From positions 1 through 36,220 of the IMG/VR virus record IMGVR_UViG_3300045988_159601: a DNA stretch of 36,220 bases. The stretch is one strand, 5' to 3'. Positions 3,109 to 36,220 of this stretch are shown piece by piece (the stretch's first letter is position 1; every line of letters starts with the position of its first letter). This DNA comes from a virus. The notes beneath the pieces are model-generated. The model saw only the letters and a list, made by a program, of their open reading frames with translations, did not search any database and was not told the DNA's origin. A program made the position numbers and the translations under genes.

Positions 3109-3116
3109 AAGCCAAA

Positions 3117-3138
3117 GGCCGGGGACTATTCCCCGGCC
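3117..3138. terminator. Bidirectional rho-independent-type hairpin at the convergence of the plus early operon and the minus HTH gene
   Basis: ggccgggga-ctat-tccccggcc: 9-bp GC stem. T-rich run downstream on the plus strand (tcttcttc) and on the minus strand (tttggcttttattctttc). The right arm overlaps the last codons of the minus HTH gene. Confidence 0.6.
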
Positions 3139-3338
3139 TCTTCTTCGTCCACATATTCCATTAAATCACCTGGTTGGCAGTTCAGCAGCTTACAGAGTTT
3201 GTCGATGGTCACCGTCTCAAACCCGCCCGTGCCATTCAACGCCTTTGCTATGATGGTTGGGCTGATACCGGCTTTTCTCAGCCGGTATTTAGCTCCACGC
3301 TCTTCGAGCTTCGCCTTAAATCCGTTGTAGGTAATCAT
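3126..3338 (-). CDS. Small Cro/C1-type (HTH_26-like) DNA-binding protein, 70 aa
   Basis: MITYNGFKAKLEERGAKYRLRKAGISPTIIAKALNGTGGFETVTIDKLCKLLNCQPGDLMEYV has the typical HTH pattern. The ATG at 3338 overlaps the upstream stop (TAATG). The longer track ORF start (3401) would overlap the upstream gene. Confidence 0.75.
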   Translation of the reverse strand: MITYNGFKAKLEERGAKYRLRKAGISPTIIAKALNGTGGFETVTIDKLCKLLNCQPGDLMEYVDEEEAGE

Positions 3339-3700
3339 TAGCACACCGCCAATTCTGTTTTGAGCTGTACCAGCGTTTCTGTGTCTACCGATTCCGGCCA
3401 TACTGCGGCTCGGCGGACCTGGGCGCTGAACCGCTTAACCCTGGCCAGCCGCTCTCTTTCTTCGGGCGGTCTCACCGTCTCTATTTCGTCCCAGTCCAGC
3501 TCTTCAGGGTCCATGCTGGATTCAAAATCCAGTACGTTTGTAAAATCCAGGCCCAGGATGAGCGCCCCCTGCAACAGGGCCGGGTCAAGGTGGCCTTCCC
3601 GGTAGGTCAGTACTTCCCCATCGTCAAAAGTCACGGTCGTGATAACTAACCGCCGGGGTTCCGTCTCGCGGATTTCGCTCTTAACAGCTACGAGTTTCAT
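3338..3700 (-). CDS. Acidic hypothetical protein (120 aa), first gene of a two-gene moron
   Basis: The start at 3700 was chosen because the AGAAAGGA SD lies 8 nt upstream, as in five paralogous leaders. The track N-terminal extension (to 3820) coincides with promoter sequence. Strong excess of D/E residues. Confidence 0.65.
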   Translation of the reverse strand: MKLVAVKSEIRETEPRRLVITTVTFDDGEVLTYREGHLDPALLQGALILGLDFTNVLDFESSMDPEELDWDEIETVRPPEERERLARVKRFSAQVRRAAVWPESVDTETLVQLKTELAVC

Positions 3701-3751
3701 AGTGTCCATCCTTTCTGCCTTTCGGCTGTCCGTCTCCTTTACTGTGCCTTT

Positions 3752-3780
3752 ATTGTATACCAGCTTATACAGAATTGCAA
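3752..3780 (-). promoter_or_regulatory. Sigma70-like promoter of the acidic-protein/HTH operon
   Basis: Minus strand reads TTGCAA, 17 nt, TACAAT. About 80 nt of promoter plus leader is near-identical to 24096..24176. Confidence 0.5.
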
Positions 3781-3835
3781 CAGGCAGACTGTACAAAAAC
3801 AAGTACACCGCTTTGTGCAACCCGAAAAGAAAAAA

Positions 3836-3857
3836 CCCACCGGGTTTAGCCGGTGGG
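3836..3857. terminator. Bidirectional terminator hairpin ending the minus-strand late (lysis) operon
   Basis: cccaccgg-gtttag-ccggtggg, flanked by an A run upstream and cttt ctttt downstream. On the minus strand it is followed by ttttttcttttc. Confidence 0.7.
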
Positions 3858-3944
3858 CTTTCTTTTGCTGAAAAACGGGACTTTCGAGTGGTCCATATTC
3901 ATTATATCACTGGGCGCTCGAATCGTCAAGCGTTTTACCATGAC

Positions 3945-4730
3945 TTACTTGAGCAGCCCCAAACGGCCCAGCACAGCGGCCAGCTCATCCCGTTTGACAG
4001 GGCGCTCCGGCCCCGTGCCGTCCATGATACCGCGATGCTTCAGGCCCTGGAAAGCGCCCTCTTTTTTCGACCACTCAGGCTCCGGCAGGTTGTCGGCGTA
4101 GGCCATGGCCTCAGCTACGATAGCATAGCACATTTCAGGGGTGAGCTGCTCGACGATCTTCTTGATGTCCATATCGTTTTCCTCTCTGCCCGCAAGACGG
4201 GCGTTTACCTGCCCGGCAATCCACGGATGCAGGTTGTACAGGTAGTCCCCAGGACACACCTTGTCCGTTCGCGTCCAACGGTGTACCACCATGTTCTGCG
4301 CGGCCCAATTACCCATCAAATCCCGCCGTCCGTGCCACAGCAGCGCTTTAATACCGTTCCGCTGGCAGATGTCGGTCAGCAGGTCGAGCAGGGCAGACAG
4401 GGCTTTGTCCGTCACCCGGTTAGGCGCGTCAATGTCGCTTGCCACCTCAATAGATACTATTTGATGGTCAATCGGGTTTGACGTACACCATGCCCGATCC
4501 GATTCAGGCACGACTAAGGCAATGGACCCGTCCCCACCTACCGCATAGTTGCAGGAAGCACCATTTTTCCGGTCGTAGGTGGTAAACCGGCCCAGGTCCG
4601 CCGTATCCCGTGCGCGTTTGTTCCGTCCGCCCGCGGTGCAGTGGATAGCCACGCCCCGGATGACGCCGTTCCGGGGGCTTGTGCGGTTCGGAGAGATACG
4701 GGTATAGGTTACGAGTTTACTGTTGCTCAT
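3945..4730 (-). CDS. Endolysin: N-acetylmuramoyl-L-alanine amidase (Amidase_2/PGRP type) with an SLH-like C-terminal segment
   Basis: N-terminal IHCTAG...YAVGGDG...AWCTSN...IEV pattern of amidase_2. Located directly after the holin. AGAGG SD. Confidence 0.85.
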   Translation of the reverse strand: MSNSKLVTYTRISPNRTSPRNGVIRGVAIHCTAGGRNKRARDTADLGRFTTYDRKNGASCNYAVGGDGSIALVVPESDRAWCTSNPIDHQIVSIEVASDIDAPNRVTDKALSALLDLLTDICQRNGIKALLWHGRRDLMGNWAAQNMVVHRWTRTDKVCPGDYLYNLHPWIAGQVNARLAGREENDMDIKKIVEQLTPEMCYAIVAEAMAYADNLPEPEWSKKEGAFQGLKHRGIMDGTGPERPVKRDELAAVLGRLGLLK

Positions 4731-6058: not shown

Positions 6059-7210
6059 TTACCAGAACAGCAGAACGACGCCGGGACTGGCTTCGCCGTA
6101 GTGAGGATCACCTAAATAGGTATAGGATGGACCGACAGCCGCTTCCTCAGAATCCAAGGAGCGACCCGCAAAGCCTCCGCCCCTACCACCAAAGCCGCAC
6201 CCGCCACCACCAGGGTACCCACTGTTGTCACTCTCCTTAGCGGAAGCATAGCCTCCGCCTGTGCTGCTGACACCGCCATTTCCTTCGCCACCGTAGGCGT
6301 TTAGCAGATTCCCGAACTTAGATACACCCCCGGAATTGTTAGTATATGGGGTGCTGGTGGCGTATCCGCCACCGGCTCCGCCCCCGCCACCGGCTCCGCC
6401 CCCGCCATTGGCGTTGCTATGGGAAACCCCACTACCCCCGGAACCCCCGCAGACTATGTTAGAGGCGCCTTTGGCGTTACCTGAGTCGGTGGGGGTGTTA
6501 CCAGCTCCGCCGCCACCACCGCCATAGGGACTAGCAAGAGACCCAGGACCCGAAATAATCTGTTTTTGAGGGATGACAAATAACCCCGGCTGGAAACCTT
6601 CGCCGCCTCCGCCGCCTCCGCCGCCACAGGCTGTATAATAGGGGCTGGTGGACTCTATGGATTGTGTGCGGCCACCGCGACCACCACCGCCGCCAAACCC
6701 TCCGGGCGCAGTGAGAAAAGTTCCGAACGACGTAGCCCCGCCGTTTCCACCGGTCCCGCCATCTCCGCCTGATGAACCAGAAACTGTCGCGACGGCACCA
6801 GCGGAACCATTCGCCCCTGCCTGTCCCACGGTGACAGGGATAGATAAGGCCGCGTTTAGTATCACAAAACTACAGGATTCTACCTGTCCGGCGGACCCAC
6901 CGCCACCGCCACCGCCGCCCTCATAGCTAGCGCCTCTAGAACCGGATGAACCAGCCCCGCCGCCGCCGCCACCGCCGCCACCGAATCCACCGCCGGAACC
7001 ACCGGCTGCGCCACCGGAATAGGGTAGGTCTGTGCTGTACTTGCTTCCGCCGCCAAGTTTACCCCCTTCGCCGCCGGAATAGGCCGCGCCACCGCCACCG
7101 CCGCCACCGCCGCCGCCACCGACGGCGATAGCTGTAAGCACAGTGCCATTTCTAATACCATGATCTTTCGGAATGAACGTCATAGATTCCTTGATAATCA
7201 TAAAACCCAT
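6059..7210 (-). CDS. Glycine-rich (polyglycine-tract) protein, putative receptor-binding adhesin
   Basis: 383 aa with many G6-G11 runs separated by short variable segments. AAGGGGG SD. Lies in the tail-fibre block. Confidence 0.7.
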   Translation of the reverse strand: MGFMIIKESMTFIPKDHGIRNGTVLTAIAVGGGGGGGGGGGAAYSGGEGGKLGGGSKYSTDLPYSGGAAGGSGGGFGGGGGGGGGAGSSGSRGASYEGGGGGGGGSAGQVESCSFVILNAALSIPVTVGQAGANGSAGAVATVSGSSGGDGGTGGNGGATSFGTFLTAPGGFGGGGGRGGRTQSIESTSPYYTACGGGGGGGGEGFQPGLFVIPQKQIISGPGSLASPYGGGGGGAGNTPTDSGNAKGASNIVCGGSGGSGVSHSNANGGGGAGGGGGAGGGYATSTPYTNNSGGVSKFGNLLNAYGGEGNGGVSSTGGGYASAKESDNSGYPGGGGCGFGGRGGGFAGRSLDSEEAAVGPSYTYLGDPHYGEASPGVVLLFW

Positions 7211-22470: not shown

Positions 22471-22528
22471 AACCTCATGTACCAAACTATTGAATTAGTT
22501 TAACCCATACACCAACCCAGTCCAGTCC

Positions 22529-22622
22529 ATACACCAACTCACACCAGCCAATACACCAACTCATACACCAGCCAATACACCAACTCATACACCAACTCAT
22601 ACACCAACTCATACACCAACTC
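22529..22622. repeat. Tandem array of about 8 units of a 12-mer (ATACACCAACTC, variant ATACACCAGCCA)
   Basis: Perfect units start at 22529, 22551, 22575, 22587, 22599 and 22611. Variants are at 22541 and 22563, and there is an isolated copy at 22507. Confidence 0.9.
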
Positions 22623-22641
22623 AGCCCTGCTGTTTACTTTA

Positions 22642-22962
22642 GTGGAACAAAGGGCACAAAAGACACAAGGGTTTCTTATAAACCCCTATATAAGGCTGTA
22701 TATTAGTCTATATCCGTACTATATACCCTATTTACCTATTTAATTATATATTTGTTCCTATTGTTCCACTTGTTCCATAGATATAGAAAACCCTTGGGGG
22801 GCCAACGGTTTGCGGGCGGGACAGAGGTGGAACAAGAGGCGCAAAAAGTGGAACAATGGGAACAAGGCTGTTGTTCCACTCAAGGGACCTGGTGGAACAA
22901 GGAACAAGGAACGGGGACAGACCCGGCTTGTTCCAGGCTCTTGTCCCCGTTCCTTGTTCCAC
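22642..22962. repeat. Iteron-like array: at least 13 copies of (GT)GGAACAA in both orientations, flanking an AT-rich tract
   Basis: Forward copies start at 22642, 22827, 22848, 22859, 22892 and 22901. Reverse copies (TTGTTCC(AC)) start at 22752, 22761, 22770, 22871, 22928 and 22954. The AT-rich tata-repeat tract is 22675..22760. Confidence 0.85.
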
Positions 22963-22976
22963 TCTTCGACCCTGTT

Positions 22977-23231
22977 TCATGCGCCCACAATGGGGCGCTT
23001 CCATTTTAATTCACTGGCAGGGATACGATATTTTTTCTGCTCATTAAACGACCGGTTGAAATACGATTGTACCCCGTCCGGGTGCGTGAAGATGTCATCG
23101 CCGTTTAGGACGATACCATAGCAAATGATATAGGCATTATGTCCAGGGATTCTGTGATAGGTTGCGTTCTCCGTTTCTACCTCATAGAATCCCCTGGTGC
23201 CGTGTTCGTAGATAGGGACATAGACTTTCAT
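22977..23231 (-). CDS. Hypothetical small protein (84 aa)
   Basis: The ATG at 23231 is preceded by GGGCAGAAAGGAAGG. The track start 23255 lacks an SD. Confidence 0.6.
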   Translation of the reverse strand: MKVYVPIYEHGTRGFYEVETENATYHRIPGHNAYIICYGIVLNGDDIFTHPDGVQSYFNRSFNEQKKYRIPASELKWKRPIVGA

Positions 23232-23262
23232 AGCGTCCTTCCTTTCTGCCCACAATGGGCTG

Positions 23263-23511
23263 TCACCGGCTCAGAGCCTCACAGATAAAAGATCTTCTCC
23301 GGTCCGGGACGTAAACGAAAATGGTAACGTCGCGCTCTCTGTCTCTCATATCGTTGGAGCAGATTTCACACTTGACCGTGATAAATCCAATCGCGCCGTC
23401 TGTCTCATGGTATCCGTAGCCGGTGAGTCTGGAATCCTTGCCGTCGCGTTTCTGCGCGAACTTCTCAACCTTCTTGATCTCGCTTCTCAACAGCCCTTCA
23501 AACTTCTTCAT
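23263..23511 (-). CDS. Hypothetical small protein (82 aa)
   Basis: The ATG is preceded by GGCCAGAAAGGAAGATAACT, the conserved leader. Confidence 0.6.
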   Translation of the reverse strand: MKKFEGLLRSEIKKVEKFAQKRDGKDSRLTGYGYHETDGAIGFITVKCEICSNDMRDRERDVTIFVYVPDRRRSFICEALSR

Positions 23512-23584
23512 AGTTATCTTCCTTTCTGGCCGGGCTTGTGACCGGCCTGCCGCATTACCGGGGCCGAAGCCCCGTCACTCTGCG
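23512..23584 (-). repeat. Structured intergenic element, copy A
   Basis: Minus strand: cgcagagtgac-CGGGGC-ttcg-GCCCCG-gtaatgcggca-GGCCGG-tcacaagc-CCGGCC-agaaaggaagataact. Confidence 0.8.
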
Positions 23585-23585
23585 A

Positions 23586-23789
23586 TTAAAAAAGTTCCAT
23601 TACGTTCCCGTCGATGGCGCTCATTATGTGGGTGTAGCCTTCTCTCAGGTAATGACTATAACGGGTTGTGTCCTTGGCGGAGATCACAACGGCGCTGTTC
23701 CCCTTTACTAGGGCTGCATACTTTGTTGCTTTCCCGTGGGACTTGCGGATACACTCTCTCTCCAGGTTTTTTAATTGCAGTTTGTTCAT
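23586..23789 (-). CDS. Hypothetical small protein (67 aa)
   Basis: The ATG at 23789 is preceded by GGCCAGAAAGGAAGATAAAA. The track start 23834 lies inside the repeat element. Confidence 0.6.
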   Translation of the reverse strand: MNKLQLKNLERECIRKSHGKATKYAALVKGNSAVVISAKDTTRYSHYLREGYTHIMSAIDGNVMELF

Positions 23790-23865
23790 TTTTATCTTCC
23801 TTTCTGGCCGGGGTTGTGACCGGCTCTCCCGCATTACCAGAGGCTTGCGCCCCTGTCACTCTGCG
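23790..23865 (-). repeat. Structured intergenic element, copy B
   Basis: Minus strand: cgcagagtgac-AGGGGC-gcaa-GCCTCT-ggtaatgcgggaga-GCCGG-tcacaacc-CCGGC-cagaaaggaagataaaa. The TGA stop of the upstream gene lies within it. Confidence 0.8.
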
Positions 23866-24095
23866 TTGTTGATGTAGGCTCTCAGTTCTCCGTCGTATGC
23901 GTCGCTGTCGAGCCAGGCGTTGAACGCTTCCGGGTATCGGCGCTCGATCTCGTCCATCAACCATCCGCGCATGAGAACGCTTTCCTTGTTTCTCTGGCCC
24001 TCTGTACTCTCCCAGATGGTCAGGAGCAGGTTGTCGTTCATTGCTTCTACCCTCTCCACTGCCTGTCTAGTCATGGCCTCTACGTTCTTTTTCAT
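23856..24095 (-). CDS. Hypothetical small protein (79 aa), first gene of the small-ORF cassette
   Basis: The ATG is preceded by GGGCAGAAAGGAAATAGAT, downstream of the promoter at 24148..24176. Confidence 0.6.
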   Translation of the reverse strand: MKKNVEAMTRQAVERVEAMNDNLLLTIWESTEGQRNKESVLMRGWLMDEIERRYPEAFNAWLDSDAYDGELRAYINNAE

Positions 24096-24147
24096 ATCTA
24101 TTTCCTTTCTGCCCTGTCGGGCTGTCCGTTTCCTTTACTGTGATTAT

Positions 24148-24176
24148 ATTGTACACCAGCTTGTACAATAATACAA
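24148..24176 (-). promoter_or_regulatory. Sigma70-like promoter of the small-ORF cassette, paralogous to 3752..3780
   Basis: Minus strand reads TTGTAT, 17 nt, TACAAT. Four TTGTAC(A) copies lie at 24149, 24161, 24185 and 24197. Confidence 0.5.
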
Positions 24177-24303
24177 TAGACACATTGTACAAATTCTTGT
24201 ACTGTTTCCTGTGCGCTTTGACAGAGATTTGACAGGCTAATATCTCCTAAAACGTGCTAAAATATGCTAAAATCCGTACCCCGAAGCATAGCTTCAGGGT
24301 ATG

Positions 24304-24345
24304 CAAAAATCCCGTGAAACCATTGGCGCTCAACGGTTTCACGGG
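24304..24345 (-). terminator. Rho-independent terminator downstream of the integrase
   Basis: 11-bp stem cccgtgaaacc / ggtttcacggg, followed on the minus strand by atttttgcat. Confidence 0.65.
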
Positions 24346-24409: not shown

Positions 24410-25483
24410 CTATTCGTCTTTTTCGTCGCTGACCGGATTTTGACACAAATACCGATTTAGCTTGTCAGCCGTGGCCTGTTTGCGGCTCTGCATGATGTGG
24501 GTATATATGTTCATCGTGGTTCTTATATCGGAGTGCCCTAGTAACGTTTGCATTTCCTTTACCCCGACACCCGCATCATATAGCACGGTTGCATAGAAGT
24601 GCCTCAGCTGGTGGGTAGTTACTGCCGTACCCCGGCCCCGTGTACCTACGCCTACCGATATGCACCACGTCCGCCACGCGCTCTTAAATTGGCTCAGGCG
24701 TAACAGTTCCCCGGTAGGGCCAGGGAATACTAGTCCCTGTTTCCGGTCTCCTAGCAGGGCGTCCAGCGGGGCAGGAATAACTACGTCTCGCACTCCCTGC
24801 GCCGTTTTGGGCGGCTTGGTGTGTGGAGCCTCACCGATAAACTGCACGGCCCGTCTAACGTGTATCACCCCCGCGGCCCGGTCGAAATCTTCCCATTGGA
24901 GAGCTAGTATCTCTCCCCGGCGCATGCCTGTATACCCTTCCAGCGCCGCGAACAAACCGAACGGCAGGCGAAACCCTGCCCCGATCATTGCTAATTGCTC
25001 AGGCGTGGGCGGCTCTCTGGTTCCGGCTGGTAGGCCCTTGGGCATTTTGGATTGCCGGGCCACGTTGTACCTCACAATCCGTTTTCCGATTGCGTAGTCC
25101 CACGTCTGAGTTAATACATCCCGCCGCCGCTGGACTGTCCAACGGGTGTATCCACGGGCCGCGATAGCCTGTAAGAACTCCGTGATCTCATCCGGGTATA
25201 TGTCCCCGATCTCCCGGCCCTGAAACCACTGTAACACGTCCCGCACGGCGGGCGCATAGTTTCCCCACGATGTGGCCTCAACCTCTTCTCTGTGCCGTTC
25301 TGCCCACTGCTCGACGATGGTACACAGCTGCATAGCCTGCGCCTGTTCCTGCTCTCGCTCCATGCTCCATGTGGCTAGCTTCCGCTGCACCTCTCGCTGT
25401 GTCCGCCCGTAGAAATATTTGGGCCGTTCCATCCCCGGCAGCTTCACTTGCTCTTGCCAGCGTCCGTCCTTCCGTTTTATCAT
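24410..25483 (-). CDS. int: Tyrosine recombinase / phage integrase
   Basis: 357 aa. C-terminal HQLRHFYATVLYDAGVGVKEMQTLLGHSDIRTTMNIYTH (R..H.R.Y catalytic pattern) and an N-terminal SAM-like domain. Confidence 0.9.
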   Translation of the reverse strand: MIKRKDGRWQEQVKLPGMERPKYFYGRTQREVQRKLATWSMEREQEQAQAMQLCTIVEQWAERHREEVEATSWGNYAPAVRDVLQWFQGREIGDIYPDEITEFLQAIAARGYTRWTVQRRRDVLTQTWDYAIGKRIVRYNVARQSKMPKGLPAGTREPPTPEQLAMIGAGFRLPFGLFAALEGYTGMRRGEILALQWEDFDRAAGVIHVRRAVQFIGEAPHTKPPKTAQGVRDVVIPAPLDALLGDRKQGLVFPGPTGELLRLSQFKSAWRTWCISVGVGTRGRGTAVTTHQLRHFYATVLYDAGVGVKEMQTLLGHSDIRTTMNIYTHIMQSRKQATADKLNRYLCQNPVSDEKDE

Positions 25484-25799: not shown

Positions 25800-26177
25800 T
25801 TACCCTTTTAGTTCGTCCAGCAGTTTACGGGCTACCTGCTCTAGCATGCTCCACTCTGATTCGTCCAGCCGCGACAGTGCAGCCAGCAGACGCTGTTTGA
25901 AATCGTCACGGGCCAGAACTTTCCCGAAAAACTCCGCGAGTTCCTCATCCCGTGTCTTTTCAATAAACATCGGGCCGGTACCATTGCGTAGCCATTCCTC
26001 GGACACGTCGAACTCGCGGCAAATATCCGCAATGGTTCGATCACTAGGGACACGTTCTCCCTTTTCCAGCATCCAAACATAGTTTCTGGAAAGGCCGCCG
26101 ATTCTAGCCCCGAACGCCTCTTGCGTTAGGTTATTCGTTTTGCGGGTCTGTGCTATTCGTTCGCTCAGTTTTTCCAA
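25800..26177 (-). CDS. cI-like XRE-family repressor (125 aa, TTG start)
   Basis: HTH segment NNLTQEAFGARIGGLSRNYVWMLEKGERVPS. The 20 codons upstream in the track ORF coincide exactly with a TTGACA-17-TATTAT promoter, so the TTG at 26177 with a GGGGTGA SD is preferred. Confidence 0.8.
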   Translation of the reverse strand: MEKLSERIAQTRKTNNLTQEAFGARIGGLSRNYVWMLEKGERVPSDRTIADICREFDVSEEWLRNGTGPMFIEKTRDEELAEFFGKVLARDDFKQRLLAALSRLDESEWSMLEQVARKLLDELKG

Positions 26178-26208
26178 ACTCTCACCCCTTTCCCTTGGAT
26201 ACACATAT

Positions 26209-26237
26209 ATAATAGCACGGCTCTCTAACTGTGTCAA
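26209..26237 (-). promoter_or_regulatory. Repressor promoter (TTGACA, 17 nt, TATTAT)
   Basis: Read on the minus strand. The -35 is embedded in operator-like TTGACACAGTTAG. Confidence 0.6.
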
Positions 26238-29779: not shown

Positions 29780-30343
29780 ATGAGTGTAAAAATTATGCTG
29801 CGTAACGTGCGCCTGAGCTATGAGCACATCTTCACCCCAACCGCGTTTGACGATAGTCAGGATGCAAAGTATTCCGCGACGTTCATCATCCCCAAGGAAC
29901 ACACGGACCTCGACAAGGTCAAGGCCGCTTTCCGTGCCGCCGGTGCGGACAAGTACCCCAATTCCTTCAAGGGCACCGAGTGGCCGAAGGGTTTCACTTG
30001 CAGTCTCAAGGACGCAGACGTGCAGACCGACAGCATGGGTGAGCTGCTGGCAGAAAAGAATCCCGCTTATGCCGGTTGCTACATTCTGGAGGCCAACAGC
30101 ACCCGCCGCCCTGTTGTCGTGGGCCGTCGGAAAGAGGCCCTGACCGCTGAGGATGGAGTGATCTATTCTGGGTGCTATGTCAACGCATCCCTGGCCGCTG
30201 CGCCCTACGAGTACGGCAAAGTTAAGCGGGGCGTGAAAGCCTACCTGAACGGTGTGCAGTTTGTCAAGGACGGTGAGCGGTTCGGAACGGACGCGCTGAG
30301 CGACTTCGATGACCTGGAAGATGACGATGACTTCACGAACTGA
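29780..30343 (+). CDS. DUF2815-type phage single-stranded DNA-binding protein
   Basis: 187 aa. N-terminal LRNVRLSYEHIF and an acidic C-terminal tail DFDDLEDDDDF. Confidence 0.8.
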   Translation: MSVKIMLRNVRLSYEHIFTPTAFDDSQDAKYSATFIIPKEHTDLDKVKAAFRAAGADKYPNSFKGTEWPKGFTCSLKDADVQTDSMGELLAEKNPAYAGCYILEANSTRRPVVVGRRKEALTAEDGVIYSGCYVNASLAAAPYEYGKVKRGVKAYLNGVQFVKDGERFGTDALSDFDDLEDDDDFTN

Positions 30344-33074
30344 GCCGTCCCGGCGGTTAGTGCTGGACTTAGAGACGTTTTCCAGCGCTGACCTGCCCCG
30401 TGGCGGGGTAAAAAAATACACGGAAGCGCCGGACTTCGAGATTCTTCTCATGTCCTACGCTTGGGATGGTGGGCCGGTGCAACTGTGGGATTTCACCCAG
30501 TACGGCCCGCCGGACTGGTTGGCCCCCGTACTCGTGGACCCTGCATTTACTAAAATCGCCTGGAACGTATCATTTGAGCGGAACTGTCTCAACGCGGCCC
30601 TGGGCATCTATACCCCGCCCGAACAGTGGCGGGACGCTATGACCCTGGCCGCTATGAACGGCCTGCCTATGTCGCTGGACGCGGCGGGCGCGGCCCTGCA
30701 ACTCCAACAGCAGAAACTCGCTATCGGTAAAGCCCTTATCCGGTATTTCTGCACACCGTGTAAGCCCACGATTTCAAATAAGGGCCGAACTCGTAACCTG
30801 CCCGAACACGCCCCGGACAAGTGGGAGCAGTTCAAGGAATACTGTTTGAGGGATACCGTTGTTGAGCAAACCATATACGACCGGTTAGCGTCGTTCCCCG
30901 TCCCCGAATGGGAGCGCCGGTTAGAGGCATTGGACGCCCACATAAACGAAAGGGGCGTGCTGGTGGACATGGAACTAGCCGAATCCGCCGTAGCGCTCGA
31001 CGAACGGTCCCGCGCTCAGAACGTGGCAGAGATGCAGGCAATCACCGGGCTGGATAACCCCGGAAGTGTGGCCCAGCTCAAGGCGTGGCTCTCCACTAAA
31101 AACGTCAACGTGGCCAGCCTGAACAAGGCCACCGTGTCCGAATTGTTGGACACTGTGACAGACCCAGCAACCCGCCGGGTGCTGGAATTGCGACAGCTGA
31201 CCGGCAAAACGTCTACCAAAAAATACCAGGCTATCCTAGACGCGGCCTGTGCAGACCACCGAATCCGTGGCCTGCTCCAATACTACGGAGCGGCCCGGAC
31301 TGGGCGGTGGGCCGGGCGGCGGGTACAGCTGCAAAACCTGGCACAGAACCATCTAGAGAATATCGGCACTGTGAGAGAGTTAGTCCGTGCCCGCGACCTG
31401 GAGACCCTAGAGCTTGCCTATGACAGCGTGCCTGACGTACTGTCTCAGCTCATCCGCACTGCCCTGATAGCCAAACCGGGGCACACGTTCCTGGTGGCGG
31501 ACTATTCGGCGATTGAGGCCCGCGTCGTGGCGTGGATGGCCGGGGAGCAGTGGCGGATGGATGTTTTCGCCCAGGGTGGGGACATCTATTGCAGCTCTGC
31601 CTCTCAGATGTTCCATGTGCCCGTCGTAAAACACGGCGTAAACGGTCACTTGCGCCAAAAGGGCAAGATCGCGGAGCTGGCTTGTATCGCTGAGGGACAA
31701 TTAGTGCTAACCGATACCGGCCTAGTGCCTATCGAGCAGGTGACAACGGACCATCTCGTATGGGATGGGATAGAGTGGGTAAACCATGACGGCGTTGTTT
31801 GCCGTGGAGAACGGGAGGTAATCAGTTATGGGGGATTGGAGGCGACAGCGGACCACCTCGTATGGGCCACGCTCGACGGGAACAGTGGGCCGGTACAGTT
31901 CGGAGACGCCGCCACCAGCGGCGCACATCTCTTACAAACCGGAACAGGTAGGAACCCGGTTCGGGTGGGTGACGATCATCGACCCGGAAAAACGATGGAA
32001 CAAGAGCTGGAACCATTGTTACGTCCTGACCCGGTGCAACGGTTGCGGACGGGAACAATGACAGTATCTGGACAACCTGAGAAGCGGAAAATCCAAAGGC
32101 GGCCAGAGTTGTTCTCAGCGTCGAGCGGTTCCCCGTTGGTTGGACCGGCGTTTTACGGCGGCAAAACAGCGTTGCGAGAATCCGAAGGATACGAATTACA
32201 AGAACTACGGGGCACGGGGGATACAGTTTCGGTTTCCGAGTGTGACAGACGCCGCTATTTACATGATCGAGACGAACGGGCTTCCAGACCGGAGTTTAGA
32301 GCTGGACCGGATAGACGTAAACGGCCACTACGAGCCGGGCAATCTGAGATGGGTAACACACCAACAGAACTGCCAGAACCAACGCCGATTTCTGGAAAAG
32401 TGAGAGTGTACGATATCCTGAACGCGGGGCCGCGTCACCGATTCACCGTATCCGGGGTTCTGGTTCATAACTGCGGTTACGGCGGCGGTGTAGGCGCGTT
32501 GAAAGCGTTTGGTGCAGACAAAATGGGCCTGTCGGAGGATGAAATGCAAACCATCGTCCAGCATTGGAGACGGGCATCTCCTACTATCCCCCGTTTCTGG
32601 TCTGCGACCGAGCGGGCCGCCCGGTCTGCGCTGGCCCACCCCGGCAAAACGTTTTCCGTCCAGCCCTGCGGGGTGAAATACCGCCGGGACGCGGACGCCC
32701 TGCGGTGTAAGCTGCCCAGCGGGCGTATCCTGTCGTACTGGGGCGCGAACATAGGCCCAGACGGACACCTGTATTACATGGGCCAGAACCAGACTACTAG
32801 AAAATGGGAGCGGACGGAGACATGGGGCGGCAAACTGGTAGAGAACATCGTCCAGGCCGTGGCCCGTGACTGTCTGGCCGTTGCCCTGCTTCGGCTTGAT
32901 GATGCTGGTTTTCAAACACTATTCACCGTCCACGATGAGGTAATAGTGGAGGAACCACAGGGACGCAGGACATGGCAGGACGTGGCCGAAATCATGGGCC
33001 AACCCATTGACTGGGCACCAGGTCTGTTGTTACGCGGGGACGGCTACGAGACACCATTTTATATGAAGGACTGA
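30309..33074 (+). CDS. Family-A DNA polymerase (3'-5' exo + pol) containing an intein. The start could be 30309, 30321 or 30327.
   Basis: ExoI LVLDLETFS, motif A LVADYSAIEARV, motif B KGKIAELA/CGYGGG interrupted by the intein, and motif C FTVHDEV. Confidence 0.9.
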   Translation: MTWKMTMTSRTEPSRRLVLDLETFSSADLPRGGVKKYTEAPDFEILLMSYAWDGGPVQLWDFTQYGPPDWLAPVLVDPAFTKIAWNVSFERNCLNAALGIYTPPEQWRDAMTLAAMNGLPMSLDAAGAALQLQQQKLAIGKALIRYFCTPCKPTISNKGRTRNLPEHAPDKWEQFKEYCLRDTVVEQTIYDRLASFPVPEWERRLEALDAHINERGVLVDMELAESAVALDERSRAQNVAEMQAITGLDNPGSVAQLKAWLSTKNVNVASLNKATVSELLDTVTDPATRRVLELRQLTGKTSTKKYQAILDAACADHRIRGLLQYYGAARTGRWAGRRVQLQNLAQNHLENIGTVRELVRARDLETLELAYDSVPDVLSQLIRTALIAKPGHTFLVADYSAIEARVVAWMAGEQWRMDVFAQGGDIYCSSASQMFHVPVVKHGVNGHLRQKGKIAELACIAEGQLVLTDTGLVPIEQVTTDHLVWDGIEWVNHDGVVCRGEREVISYGGLEATADHLVWATLDGNSGPVQFGDAATSGAHLLQTGTGRNPVRVGDDHRPGKTMEQELEPLLRPDPVQRLRTGTMTVSGQPEKRKIQRRPELFSASSGSPLVGPAFYGGKTALRESEGYELQELRGTGDTVSVSECDRRRYLHDRDERASRPEFRAGPDRRKRPLRAGQSEMGNTPTELPEPTPISGKVRVYDILNAGPRHRFTVSGVLVHNCGYGGGVGALKAFGADKMGLSEDEMQTIVQHWRRASPTIPRFWSATERAARSALAHPGKTFSVQPCGVKYRRDADALRCKLPSGRILSYWGANIGPDGHLYYMGQNQTTRKWERTETWGGKLVENIVQAVARDCLAVALLRLDDAGFQTLFTVHDEVIVEEPQGRRTWQDVAEIMGQPIDWAPGLLLRGDGYETPFYMKD
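31683..32471 (+). mobile_element. Intein (263 codons) in motif B of the DNA polymerase
   Basis: Starts CIAEGQLVLTDTGLVPIEQV (block A). Has GGLEATADHLVW (block B, TxxH). Ends RVYDILNAGPRHRFTVSGVLVHN, followed by a +1 Cys (CGYGGG). Confidence 0.85.
31828..32403 (+). pseudogene. HNH_3-like homing-endonuclease reading frame nested in the intein in the +1 frame, interrupted by one TGA (32059..32061)
   Basis: GGGAGG SD at 31813..31818, then ATG 31828. The frame reads ...VGTRFGWVTIIDPEKRWNKSWNHCYVLTRCNGCGREQ*QYLDNLRSGKSKG...FTAAKQRCENPKDTNYKNYGARGIQF...SLELDRIDVNGHYEPGNLRWVTHQQNCQN. Confidence 0.7.
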
Positions 33075-35749: not shown

Positions 35750-36220
35750 GATTCAACCCCTATCCCCACCAACGCGCAGGAATTGATTGGATTGTTTCCC
35801 GGCCCGCCTGTGCCCTGTTTTGGGGCATGGGCAGCGGGAAAACCGTCACCACGCTAACCGCGCTGAACACCATCCTCTATGATCTAATGGAGGATGGTCC
35901 CGCGCTGGTGATAGCCCCTAAACGGGTGGCAGAAAATACCTGGTCTACCGAGTGTGCAAAATGGGAGCATCTGCGACACCTGCGAGTATCCCGTGTCACC
36001 GGTTCGGCCCGTGAACGGCTCGACGCTCTGGCCCGCCCTGCTGATATTTACGTTACCAACCGGGAGAACGTGATTTGGTTGTGTGAGCAGTCCGATGTCT
36101 GGAAGTTTCCGATAGTCGTTATTGACGAACTCTCTAGCTTCAAATCGGCGCAGGCCAAACGCTGGAAAGCGTTGAAACAGGTCAGGCGGCGTATGCGCCG
36201 CGTTATCGAGCTGACTGGTA
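35746..36220 (+). CDS. SNF2/DEAD-like helicase, N-terminal part (continues at nt 120 after the 119-nt overlap)
   Basis: The ATG at 35746 overlaps the VRR-NUC stop (ATGA). Walker A WGMGSGKT and DExx-type VVIDELSSF. Open to the window end. Confidence 0.85.
   Translation, partial: MRFNPYPHQRAGIDWIVSRPACALFWGMGSGKTVTTLTALNTILYDLMEDGPALVIAPKRVAENTWSTECAKWEHLRHLRVSRVTGSARERLDALARPADIYVTNRENVIWLCEQSDVWKFPIVVIDELSSFKSAQAKRWKALKQVRRRMRRVIELTG
36102..36220. repeat. Terminal direct repeat, identical to 1..119
   Basis: See the feature at 1..119. Confidence 0.95.

Follow-up and report, generated by a model that had tools for sequence, protein, structure and literature searches.

A duplicated promoter, operator and leader unit at two accessory operons of a phage genome, and a candidate Aca-like helix-turn-helix autorepressor

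Anti-CRISPR-associated (Aca) repressors recognise inverted repeats within strong acr promoters, and control of further operons has been predicted or shown for them (PMC13551039, PMC9410906), and some Aca proteins bind hairpins in the 5' untranslated region (5'UTR) (PMC13551039). Circuits of this type, which include those of Aca11, Aca13 and Aca14 with several anti-defence operons and are predicted for most Aca families, are the closest published kind to the arrangement described here, which lies in IMG/VR virus record IMGVR_UViG_3300045988_159601 (positions 1 to 36,220; this whole stretch of 36,220 nucleotides (nt) is referred to as the window). The window contains two copies of one unit made up of a promoter, palindromic boxes and a 5' leader, at site A (~3820..3698) and site B (~24216..24093), both on the minus strand, as are all features below unless another strand is given. 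We consider it probable, though well short of certain, that the 70-residue helix-turn-helix (HTH) protein encoded at the end of the operon behind site A (hereafter HTH70) is an Aca-like autorepressor of its own operon which also acts in trans on a second cargo operon behind site B, the two sites being copies of one portable expression cassette.

The duplication of promoter, boxes and leader is real. The original prediction had judged the two regions by eye to be about four-fifths identical, and a blastn search of the remaining genome with site A as query finds site B at 81.3% identity over 91 nt; the formal alignment scores 81.5 bits (E 2.4e-18), the maximum among 200 dinucleotide shuffles of site A being 32.8 bits. 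The strings it quoted are present on the minus strand but their ends had been misplaced, the true runs being 3780..3698 and 24176..24093, 3 nt further in each case. A repeat finder returns an ungapped 83-nt pair (3724-3806 and 24120-24202, 78% identity), and the likeness reaches further upstream than had been noticed, to about -72 from the predicted transcription start, where GCAC boxes at 3818..3815 and 24214..24211 lie in register with all the others; the two sites align without a gap from about -72 to +20. The richness in TGTACA noted earlier was borne out as well, with 14 exact occurrences in the window against 5.8 expected, a number reached in no shuffle, three of these copies falling in 24150-24191 and one at 3790. 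The longer motif GTAC-N8-GTAC occurs exactly three times in the genome (at 3791, 24151 and 24187), every time within site A or site B; the shuffle mean is 0.37 and three or more were found in 0.7% of shuffles.

Both promoters have predicted sigma-70-type hexamers separated by a spacer of 17 base pairs (bp), within the usual 16-18 bp. The core promoter of site A (3752..3780), identified by a promoter scan (9/12 positions) and by the alignment, consists of the -35 hexamer TTGCAA (3780-3775) and the -10 hexamer TACAAT (3757-3752). That of site B (24148..24176), with TTGTAT (24176-24171) and TACAAT (24153-24148), matches the consensus at 8/12 positions overall and at only 3/6 in the -35 hexamer, which placed it below the -35 threshold of the scan and left it unlisted. 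Upstream of the hexamers lies an operator array, which reads GCAC(3818-3815)-N8-GTAC(3806-3803)-N8-GTAC(3794-3791) in site A (3791..3818, with box centres at about -71.5, -59.5 and -47.5, and exact or one-mismatch matches to GTAC-N8-GTAC at 3791 and 3803) and GCAC(24214-24211)-N8-GTAC(24202-24199)-N8-GTAC(24190-24187) in site B (24187..24214). A further operator, GTAC(24166-24163)-N8-GTAC(24154-24151), covers the spacer and -10 hexamer of site B and is represented in site A by the symmetric variant GTAT(3770-3767)-N8-ATAC(3758-3755).

Taken along the promoter, these 4-bp palindromes of GTAC type form a 12-bp lattice with centres at about -11.5, -23.5, -47.5, -59.5 and -71.5, in which the -35 hexamer takes the vacant point, a single GTAC-N8-GTAC unit covers the spacer and -10, and there are one or two more units upstream. 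Further copies came from exact-pattern scans, which returned a few IMG/VR phage contigs (mostly of one metagenome) and seven further metagenome contigs, the others being reached through homologues of HTH70 (individual contigs and loci are cited below by number). Across 17 non-identical promoter copies, in which the upstream array is retained, conservation of the GTAC boxes is 0.97 at -11.5, 0.93 at -23.5, 0.90 at -47.5 and 0.81 at -59.5, compared with about 0.6 for the N8 spacers. The upstream pair of boxes is displaced by 2 bp in L004, L035 and L059 while its internal 12-bp spacing is unchanged, and this displacement as a whole argues that the box pair is the functional unit.

Operon A runs from promoter A to the terminator at 3141-3114 and contains two genes. 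The first encodes a 120-residue cargo protein (3338..3700, ATG 3700-3698) with no known domain, for which a large-database search found 11 homologues, none of them named, and its stop codon overlaps the start of the second gene (TAATG). The second (3126..3338) encodes HTH70, the proposed regulator of both promoters. That this small reading frame is a genuine HTH protein, as had been suggested, is clear from its match to Pfam HTH_26 (PF13443, Cro/C1-type; 46.1 bits, E 5.9e-12, cutoff 22). The family is rare, with 22 word-sharing homologues in 5.8 billion proteins, all of which (22/22) contain PF13443. A family profile finds VanU(G) (3tyr) in the PDB with E 3.8e-10, and the AlphaFold2 model (pLDDT 75.6) lies nearest to VanU(G), a Bacteroides HTH protein, the N-terminal domains of SaPI2 Stl and TP901-1 CI, and CylR2 (TM-score 0.6-0.76), all of them small operator-binding proteins of Xre type.

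Four comparative tests support the proposal that a single regulator serves both operons and that the 70-residue HTH protein is the candidate for it. In every lineage examined (the window, L001, L009, L014, L028, L033, L096-L099, L004/L094, L035, L059/L066/L072/L074 and L076), the gene for HTH70 or its homologue either closes an operon driven by the cassette or lies divergently at no more than about 130 bp from such an operon. Its partner is the 120-residue protein in the window, L009 and L028, a 107-residue protein in L014 and a homologue of locus-B gene 2 in L033; in L004, L035, L059 and L076 the HTH gene is divergent and has no partner, and its own putative promoter in L004 is laid out alike, with TGTACA boxes in the spacer and -10. 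When the open reading frames of the window were compared in six frames with the available sequence of the unrelated backbone L004 and of the 5.4-kb element L035, the HTH protein was the only specific protein common to all, the other matches being confined to one contig each (L004 has an SNF2 helicase, L035 an integrase of 23% identity).

The remaining tests concern the operator itself. A recognition helix of the form G(I/V)(S/H)P(T/S) goes together with GTAC-N8-GTAC in the window, P0007, P0010 and L004, and one of the form I(G/S)Q(S/A/G)T with GCAC-N8-GTGC (L030, L031 and the second L006 copy) or TCAC-N8-GTGA (L037 and L039), so that the half-site differs with the helix while both types keep the geometry AC-N8-GT; these palindromes lie directly upstream of the homologues' own genes. 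There is one exception, the homologue of the first L006 copy, which adjoins AATAGACG repeats instead. A protein-blind search of IMG/VR with the pattern GTAC-N8-GTACAAT-N6-ACAG found 58 loci. Where at least two boxes lay nearby, 13/17 loci came from contigs with an HTH homologue, in nine of them with the HTH gene inside the fetched locus, compared with 0/41 single-box loci having the gene in the fetched locus (13/17 against 0/41, Fisher p 7.5e-10).

From these comparisons we infer both that HTH70 binds the operators and that it represses rather than activates. HTH70, probably as a dimer, would bind the 16-bp GTAC-N8-GTAC operators, and the unit over the spacer and -10 would exclude RNA polymerase from promoter A, which would amount to autoregulation because the HTH70 gene ends operon A. 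Promoter B, 20 kb away, would be repressed by the same protein in trans, and the upstream units may add cooperativity. One negative-feedback regulator would thus govern the small accessory genes of both operons, which are exchanged rapidly.

The predicted starts, A3745 and A24141, were placed by their distance from the -10 hexamer and coincide exactly with the beginning of the conserved leader. After the leader consensus, ACAGUAAAGGA(G/A)ACGGACA, come a short GC hairpin whose loop varies, (A/G)GAAAGGA, 7-8 nt and ATG, and the leader carries a Shine-Dalgarno-like AAAGGAG/A at +6 to +12. In site A (3701..3745) the leader contains ACAGUAAAGGAGACGG with the start-proximal Shine-Dalgarno-like AAAGGAG, the hairpin GCC-GAAA-GGC (3726-3717) and the ribosome-binding site (RBS) GAAAGGA (3715-3709); in site B (24096..24141) it contains ACAGUAAAGGAAACGG, the hairpin GCCC-GACA-GGGC (24122-24111) and the RBS GAAAGGA (24109-24103). 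A third copy of hairpin and RBS, ACA-GCCCA-UUG-UGGGC-AGAAAGG, was returned by the repeat finder between genes 3 and 4 of operon B (23241..23263). All are the predicted minimum-free-energy structures and are only modestly better than shuffles (z -2.4 for site B, and -1.4 and 0.0 for the other two), and neither leader matches a family in Rfam at E values up to 10, the only hits, to microRNAs and small RNAs, being at chance level. The hairpin-RBS element was found in 16 places in related loci, and it is present in more distant phages whose HTH homologue has another operator as well as at internal intercistronic positions. The form ACAGCC(C)-loop-(G)GGC(A/G)GAAAGG also precedes genes at ~2814 (-) in L030, ~2576 (-) in L033 and ~11051 in L003. 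Because the element occurs with different operators and between cistrons, this phage group appears to use it as a general module of translation initiation, separate from the GTAC boxes. A start-proximal element of Shine-Dalgarno type and a 5'-proximal hairpin abutting the RBS resemble the 5' stabilisers of Firmicutes, and it is probably the mRNA, not the regulator, that the leader serves, with hairpin and Shine-Dalgarno-like sequence likely acting in mRNA stability or translation.

Several observations weigh against autorepression by HTH70. The -11.5 box overlaps the -10 hexamer (TGTACAAT) and its conservation is explicable by promoter function alone; the promoter-proximal operator of site A is degenerate in this phage (GTAT...ATAC); L004 and several other contigs were compared in part only, so that a further shared factor is possible; the leader stem is near-invariant (GCC(C)/(G)GGC), with no true compensatory covariation; and the cargo of the window matches no family of known function in Pfam, PHROGs, NCBIfam or PADLOC. 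In addition, the -35 hexamers are weak (TTGTAT, TTGCTT and TTGCAT, with 3-4 of 6 positions) and there is no extended -10, a combination typical of activator-dependent promoters, at which the upstream boxes could be activating. HTH70 might then bind the boxes mainly as an activator or a dual regulator, the upstream pair (centre ~-53) recruiting RNA polymerase to the poor -35 and the proximal operator repressing at high concentration only, in parallel with lambda CI at PRM and the controller proteins of restriction-modification systems. The number and placement of the operator units, two or three to a promoter and both upstream and over the core, suit such a scheme, as does the appearance of restriction-modification controllers among the distant structural neighbours; we nevertheless regard it as unlikely, for the boxes are best conserved over the spacer and -10 (0.93-0.97), a position which normally excludes RNA polymerase, and the palindromes of the distant homologues lie within compact divergent promoter regions. 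The overlap of box and -10 hexamer would also fit a recently copied constitutive promoter-leader module without a dedicated regulator, or one in which the boxes serve a host factor or a different phage protein, TGTACA being a by-product of sequence resembling the -10 and -35 (TTGTAC is close to TTGACA, and TGTACAAT contains TACAAT). Consistent with this, the palindromes give promoter-like matches on the opposite strand (24150..24177, +), the confirmed copies all fall within one narrow metagenomic phage group, and a scan of 185,579 reference genomes, one per prokaryotic species, gave chance hits only and no relatives. Yet the boxes at -23.5, -47.5 and -59.5 are not needed by sigma-70 and are kept while the bases between them drift, the boxes shift as 12-bp pairs in the three contigs named above, the HTH protein co-occurs with them across unrelated backbones with a recognition helix that varies with the half-site, and the putative operators of CI look different, all of which makes this account quite improbable. 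As to another phage protein, the CI-like repressor (26237..25800) was rejected as the box binder, the cI/cro intergenic region of the window carrying AGTTAG/CTAACT repeats (read by eye) and no GTAC boxes.

The leader offers a different place for the shared control, which could act mainly on RNA, with ACAGUAAAGGA, hairpin and RBS forming the target of a translational repressor or stability factor and the DNA boxes being secondary; the factor might be HTH70 itself, as for Aca2 and Aca1, which bind 5'UTR hairpins (PMC13551039). Leader conservation equals or exceeds that of the promoter in 13/17 copies, the stem is kept while the loops are free (its length varies by paired C/G insertion, and one G-C has become G-U), and the hairpin-RBS also occurs between cistrons far from promoters (23263..23241; 11051 in L003) and in the divergent operon of L030. 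The Shine-Dalgarno sequence, however, is not sequestered by the hairpin, the folds are marginal against shuffles, compensatory double substitutions are absent and the hairpin is unlike the GTAC operator, while an mRNA-stabilising or insulating 5' hairpin fits equally well; moreover, the twister ribozymes predicted in operon B (see below), if they cleave where we presume, would leave an equivalent hairpin beside the RBS. Control residing chiefly in the leader is in our judgement very unlikely.

With autorepression by HTH70 retained as the preferred reading, the second of its proposed targets is cargo operon B (22977..24095), which comprises four small genes encoding proteins of 79 (24095..23856), 67 (23789..23586), 82 (23511..23263) and 84 residues (23231..22977). 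Twister-P5 ribozymes (Rfam RF02684, gathering score 37.6 bits) are predicted between genes 1 and 2 (23808..23865, 64.0 bits) and between genes 2 and 3 (23530..23584, 69.6 bits), both as full-length matches, each of them filling the interval from the preceding stop codon to the RBS that follows. Cleavage, which we take to occur at U^AAUGC after the closed P1 hairpin, would yield 3' products beginning about 30 nt before a hairpin-RBS arrangement equivalent to that of the leader. Twister-P5 is also found in the cargo operons of L004 (11953-11899) and L005 (3640-3695). L005 lacks the counterpart of 23562..23792, that is gene 2 and one twister, a region bordered in the window by the two twister copies, and the deletion looks as if both ribozyme copies had recombined. 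L004, an unrelated phage contig with the same cassette, also contains two skipping-rope RNA motifs (6238-6464 (-); Rfam RF02924, 49.5 and 44.5 bits).

In phages with about 90% identity to the window the cassette is present two or three times, ahead of different first genes, and these encode proteins of 79/80, 67, 75, 120, 65, 107 or 167/98 residues or a 185-residue fusion. Genes also move between loci and backbones: locus A of L033 holds a homologue of locus-B gene 2, and the 75-residue cargo of the unrelated L004 is found behind a window-type locus-B promoter in L100. Since the cargo differs behind the same cassette and the breakpoints of homology between the window and its relatives sit at start-codon/RBS, hairpin or twister elements, the non-coding linkers behave as a constant frame for exchangeable gene cassettes. 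The cargo of related loci gave a sub-threshold match to Phage_Gp111, PHROG families with no assigned function and a RecE-like PHROG hit (the 91-residue protein of L035) and nothing else; large-database searches on cargo returned unnamed phage proteins only, and the model of cargo gene 3 (AlphaFold2, pLDDT 89.6) has no significant match among PDB folds (best E 0.27). The cargo may include anti-defence proteins. A broader version of this idea, that promoter-operator-leader, hairpin-RBS linkers and twisters together make up a modular cassette system under one trans-acting HTH protein, providing expression standards and recombination joints for swaps of accessory (possibly anti-defence) genes between loci and unrelated backbones, with a ribozyme- or hairpin-defined 5' end for each cistron, is one that we put forward tentatively and with considerable doubt.

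Deposited phages show no DNA similarity around site A, and the closest HTH homologues in cultured phages, those infecting Faecalibacterium, Flavonifractor and Clostridium, reach no more than 39% identity across most of their length; these weak homologues suggest a host in the gut Clostridia. Bases 1-119 of the window equal bases 36102-36220, and because its two ends are identical it represents a complete genome, closed into a circle of 36,101 bp. Its gene content is that expected of a temperate siphophage. The minus strand carries, in order, the CI-like HTH gene, an integrase gene (25483..24410), a predicted terminator 3' of it (24305..24345) which would shield site B from upstream transcription, site B, the four small genes and a repeat-rich non-coding stretch, and continues with an HNH endonuclease gene, terminase, structural genes, an endolysin gene (4730..3945), a terminator upstream of site A (3825..3865) which would shield that site from the endolysin gene, site A, the 120-residue gene, the HTH_26 gene and a bidirectional terminator-like hairpin (3114..3141, both strands) which would end operon A against the converging early genes. 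Sites A and B thus appear to be self-contained transcription units at the usual positions of accessory genes, A after the lysis gene and B beside the integrase. Directly after the endolysin stop, a near-consensus promoter (3929..3901; TTGACG-17-TGaTATAAT, 11/12) is followed about 70 nt 3' by a strong intrinsic terminator (3857-3836 with a T-run), giving a candidate small RNA of about 70 nt which is kept in L028. Pairing of this RNA (3894..3826) with the shared leaders was considered and rejected, the duplex energies offering no advantage over shuffles.

Other features of the genome were recorded in passing. The stretch between operon B and the HNH and terminase genes (22740-23000 and 22500-22624) has numerous GGAACAA(G)/CTTGTTCC repeats, among them a long inverted repeat (~22964-22899), together with a tandem array of a 12-nt unit (GAGTTGGTGTAT-like) in at least five copies; the unrelated L004 has comparable CTTGTT repeats ahead of its small terminase gene, and repeats of this sort could be attP arm, packaging or late-regulator sites. 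At 22470-22260, a promoter-like TTGTCT-16-TGgTATAAT (10/12) precedes about 180 nt of GC-rich untranslated sequence that leads straight into the HNH-terminase genes and may be a structured late-operon leader; it belongs to no Rfam family, the best match (FMN, 13.5 bits) being at chance level. The gene for a family A DNA polymerase (30309-33074, plus strand) matches Pfam DNA_pol_A only within residues 239-455 and then has an insert of about 270 residues, beginning CIAEGQLV and ending LVHNC, which looks by eye like an intein, with no Pfam hit at E <=0.001. A 383-residue protein of the tail region (6059-7210) has an extreme glycine content, with GGGGGG runs, and is the source of most low-complexity direct repeats in the window.

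If HTH70 does bind the boxes, the system would be a compact regulon of one 70-residue regulator, a 16-bp GTAC-N8-GTAC operator and two or three promoters per genome, and its natural GCAC and TCAC half-site variants, which go with a different recognition helix, would make a small model of how HTH specificity evolves. Near-identical phages carry different small genes behind the cassette, which therefore marks hot spots of the sort that are the usual places for new anti-defence or superinfection-related proteins, and genes for such proteins could be sought in Clostridia-type gut phages by way of the operator.

Compared with known systems, the arrangement shares several features with the Aca circuits: a small HTH protein encoded within, and at the 3' end of, the operon of small, rapidly changing genes that it is proposed to control; palindromic putative operators within the promoter, here inverted repeats of GTAC-N8-GTAC type over the spacer and -10 across 17 promoter copies; repetition of the operator at a second cargo operon which has no regulator gene of its own; and a 5'UTR hairpin beside the RBS (PMC13551039, PMC9410906). 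It differs in that the second operon lies 20 kb away rather than adjacent, in the 12-bp lattice of 4-bp GTAC cores and in the twisters between cargo cistrons. Its cargo, moreover, contains no known anti-CRISPR or anti-defence protein by Pfam, PHROGs, NCBIfam or PADLOC, and HTH70 matches no chain of Aca or AcrIIA1 in the PDB, whether by sequence (E up to 1), by profile (E up to 10) or among the 50 best Foldseek hits; because such cargo and any sequence or structural link to solved Aca proteins are lacking, we do not file the system as Aca. The repressor domain of AcrIIA1 is listed with HTH_26 and HTH_3 domains (Table 1, PMC9410906). The N-terminal domain of AcrIIA1 from Listeria prophages is thus of the same Pfam HTH type and autorepresses a prophage acr promoter through a palindrome, although AcrIIA1 is a 149-residue two-domain anti-CRISPR and HTH70 a stand-alone protein of 70 residues. 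VanU(G) (3tyr/3tys) and CylR2 (1utx), Xre-type proteins of Firmicutes with about 66-75 residues, are dimeric and bind inverted repeats in the promoters that they control; they share the size and fold of HTH70 (Foldseek TM-score 0.71-0.76) but are only 18-24% identical to it, regulate chromosomal or resistance operons rather than phage cargo cassettes, and have operator sequences which are to our knowledge unrelated to the GTAC operators.

Operon A also recalls a type II toxin-antitoxin module with an Xre antitoxin in HigBA-like order, in that there are two genes with overlapping stop and start, the HTH gene is second and a palindrome lies over the core promoter; remoter HTH homologues precede genes for Zeta-toxin-like, Fic-like or unknown proteins and have small divergent genes beside them. 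Here, however, the same operator is found at a second operon, and a toxin-antitoxin identity of the 120-residue and HTH genes was rejected as the main explanation because the gene upstream of HTH is not conserved (it encodes 120, 107 or 67 residues or is absent among 80-99%-identical HTH orthologues and L004), a pattern not expected of an antitoxin devoted to a single toxin. We also rejected identity with a restriction-modification controller, there being no restriction-modification genes near either site and only weak matches to C.BclI and C.AhdI (E 1.4; Foldseek ranks 18 and 34). RiboJ-type synthetic insulators place a self-cleaving ribozyme and a hairpin upstream of the RBS. The operon B twisters similarly end in a hairpin directly before the RBS and other junctions have hairpin and RBS, giving each cistron a standard 5' context, but this arrangement is natural, with cleavage predicted from sequence. 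What twister ribozymes do in bacteria and phages is still described as undetermined (PMC6765202), and twisters inside a proposed regulated operon offer a defined setting in which to learn what self-cleavage does for a phage; were the modular account true, they would also gain a definite function and a setting for selection. Xre-type regulators that control themselves and have operators at several accessory promoters are already known, and what is new is this HTH_26 subfamily, its simple operator with the 12-bp lattice, the second target at a distance of 20 kb and the cassette-like frame with twisters.

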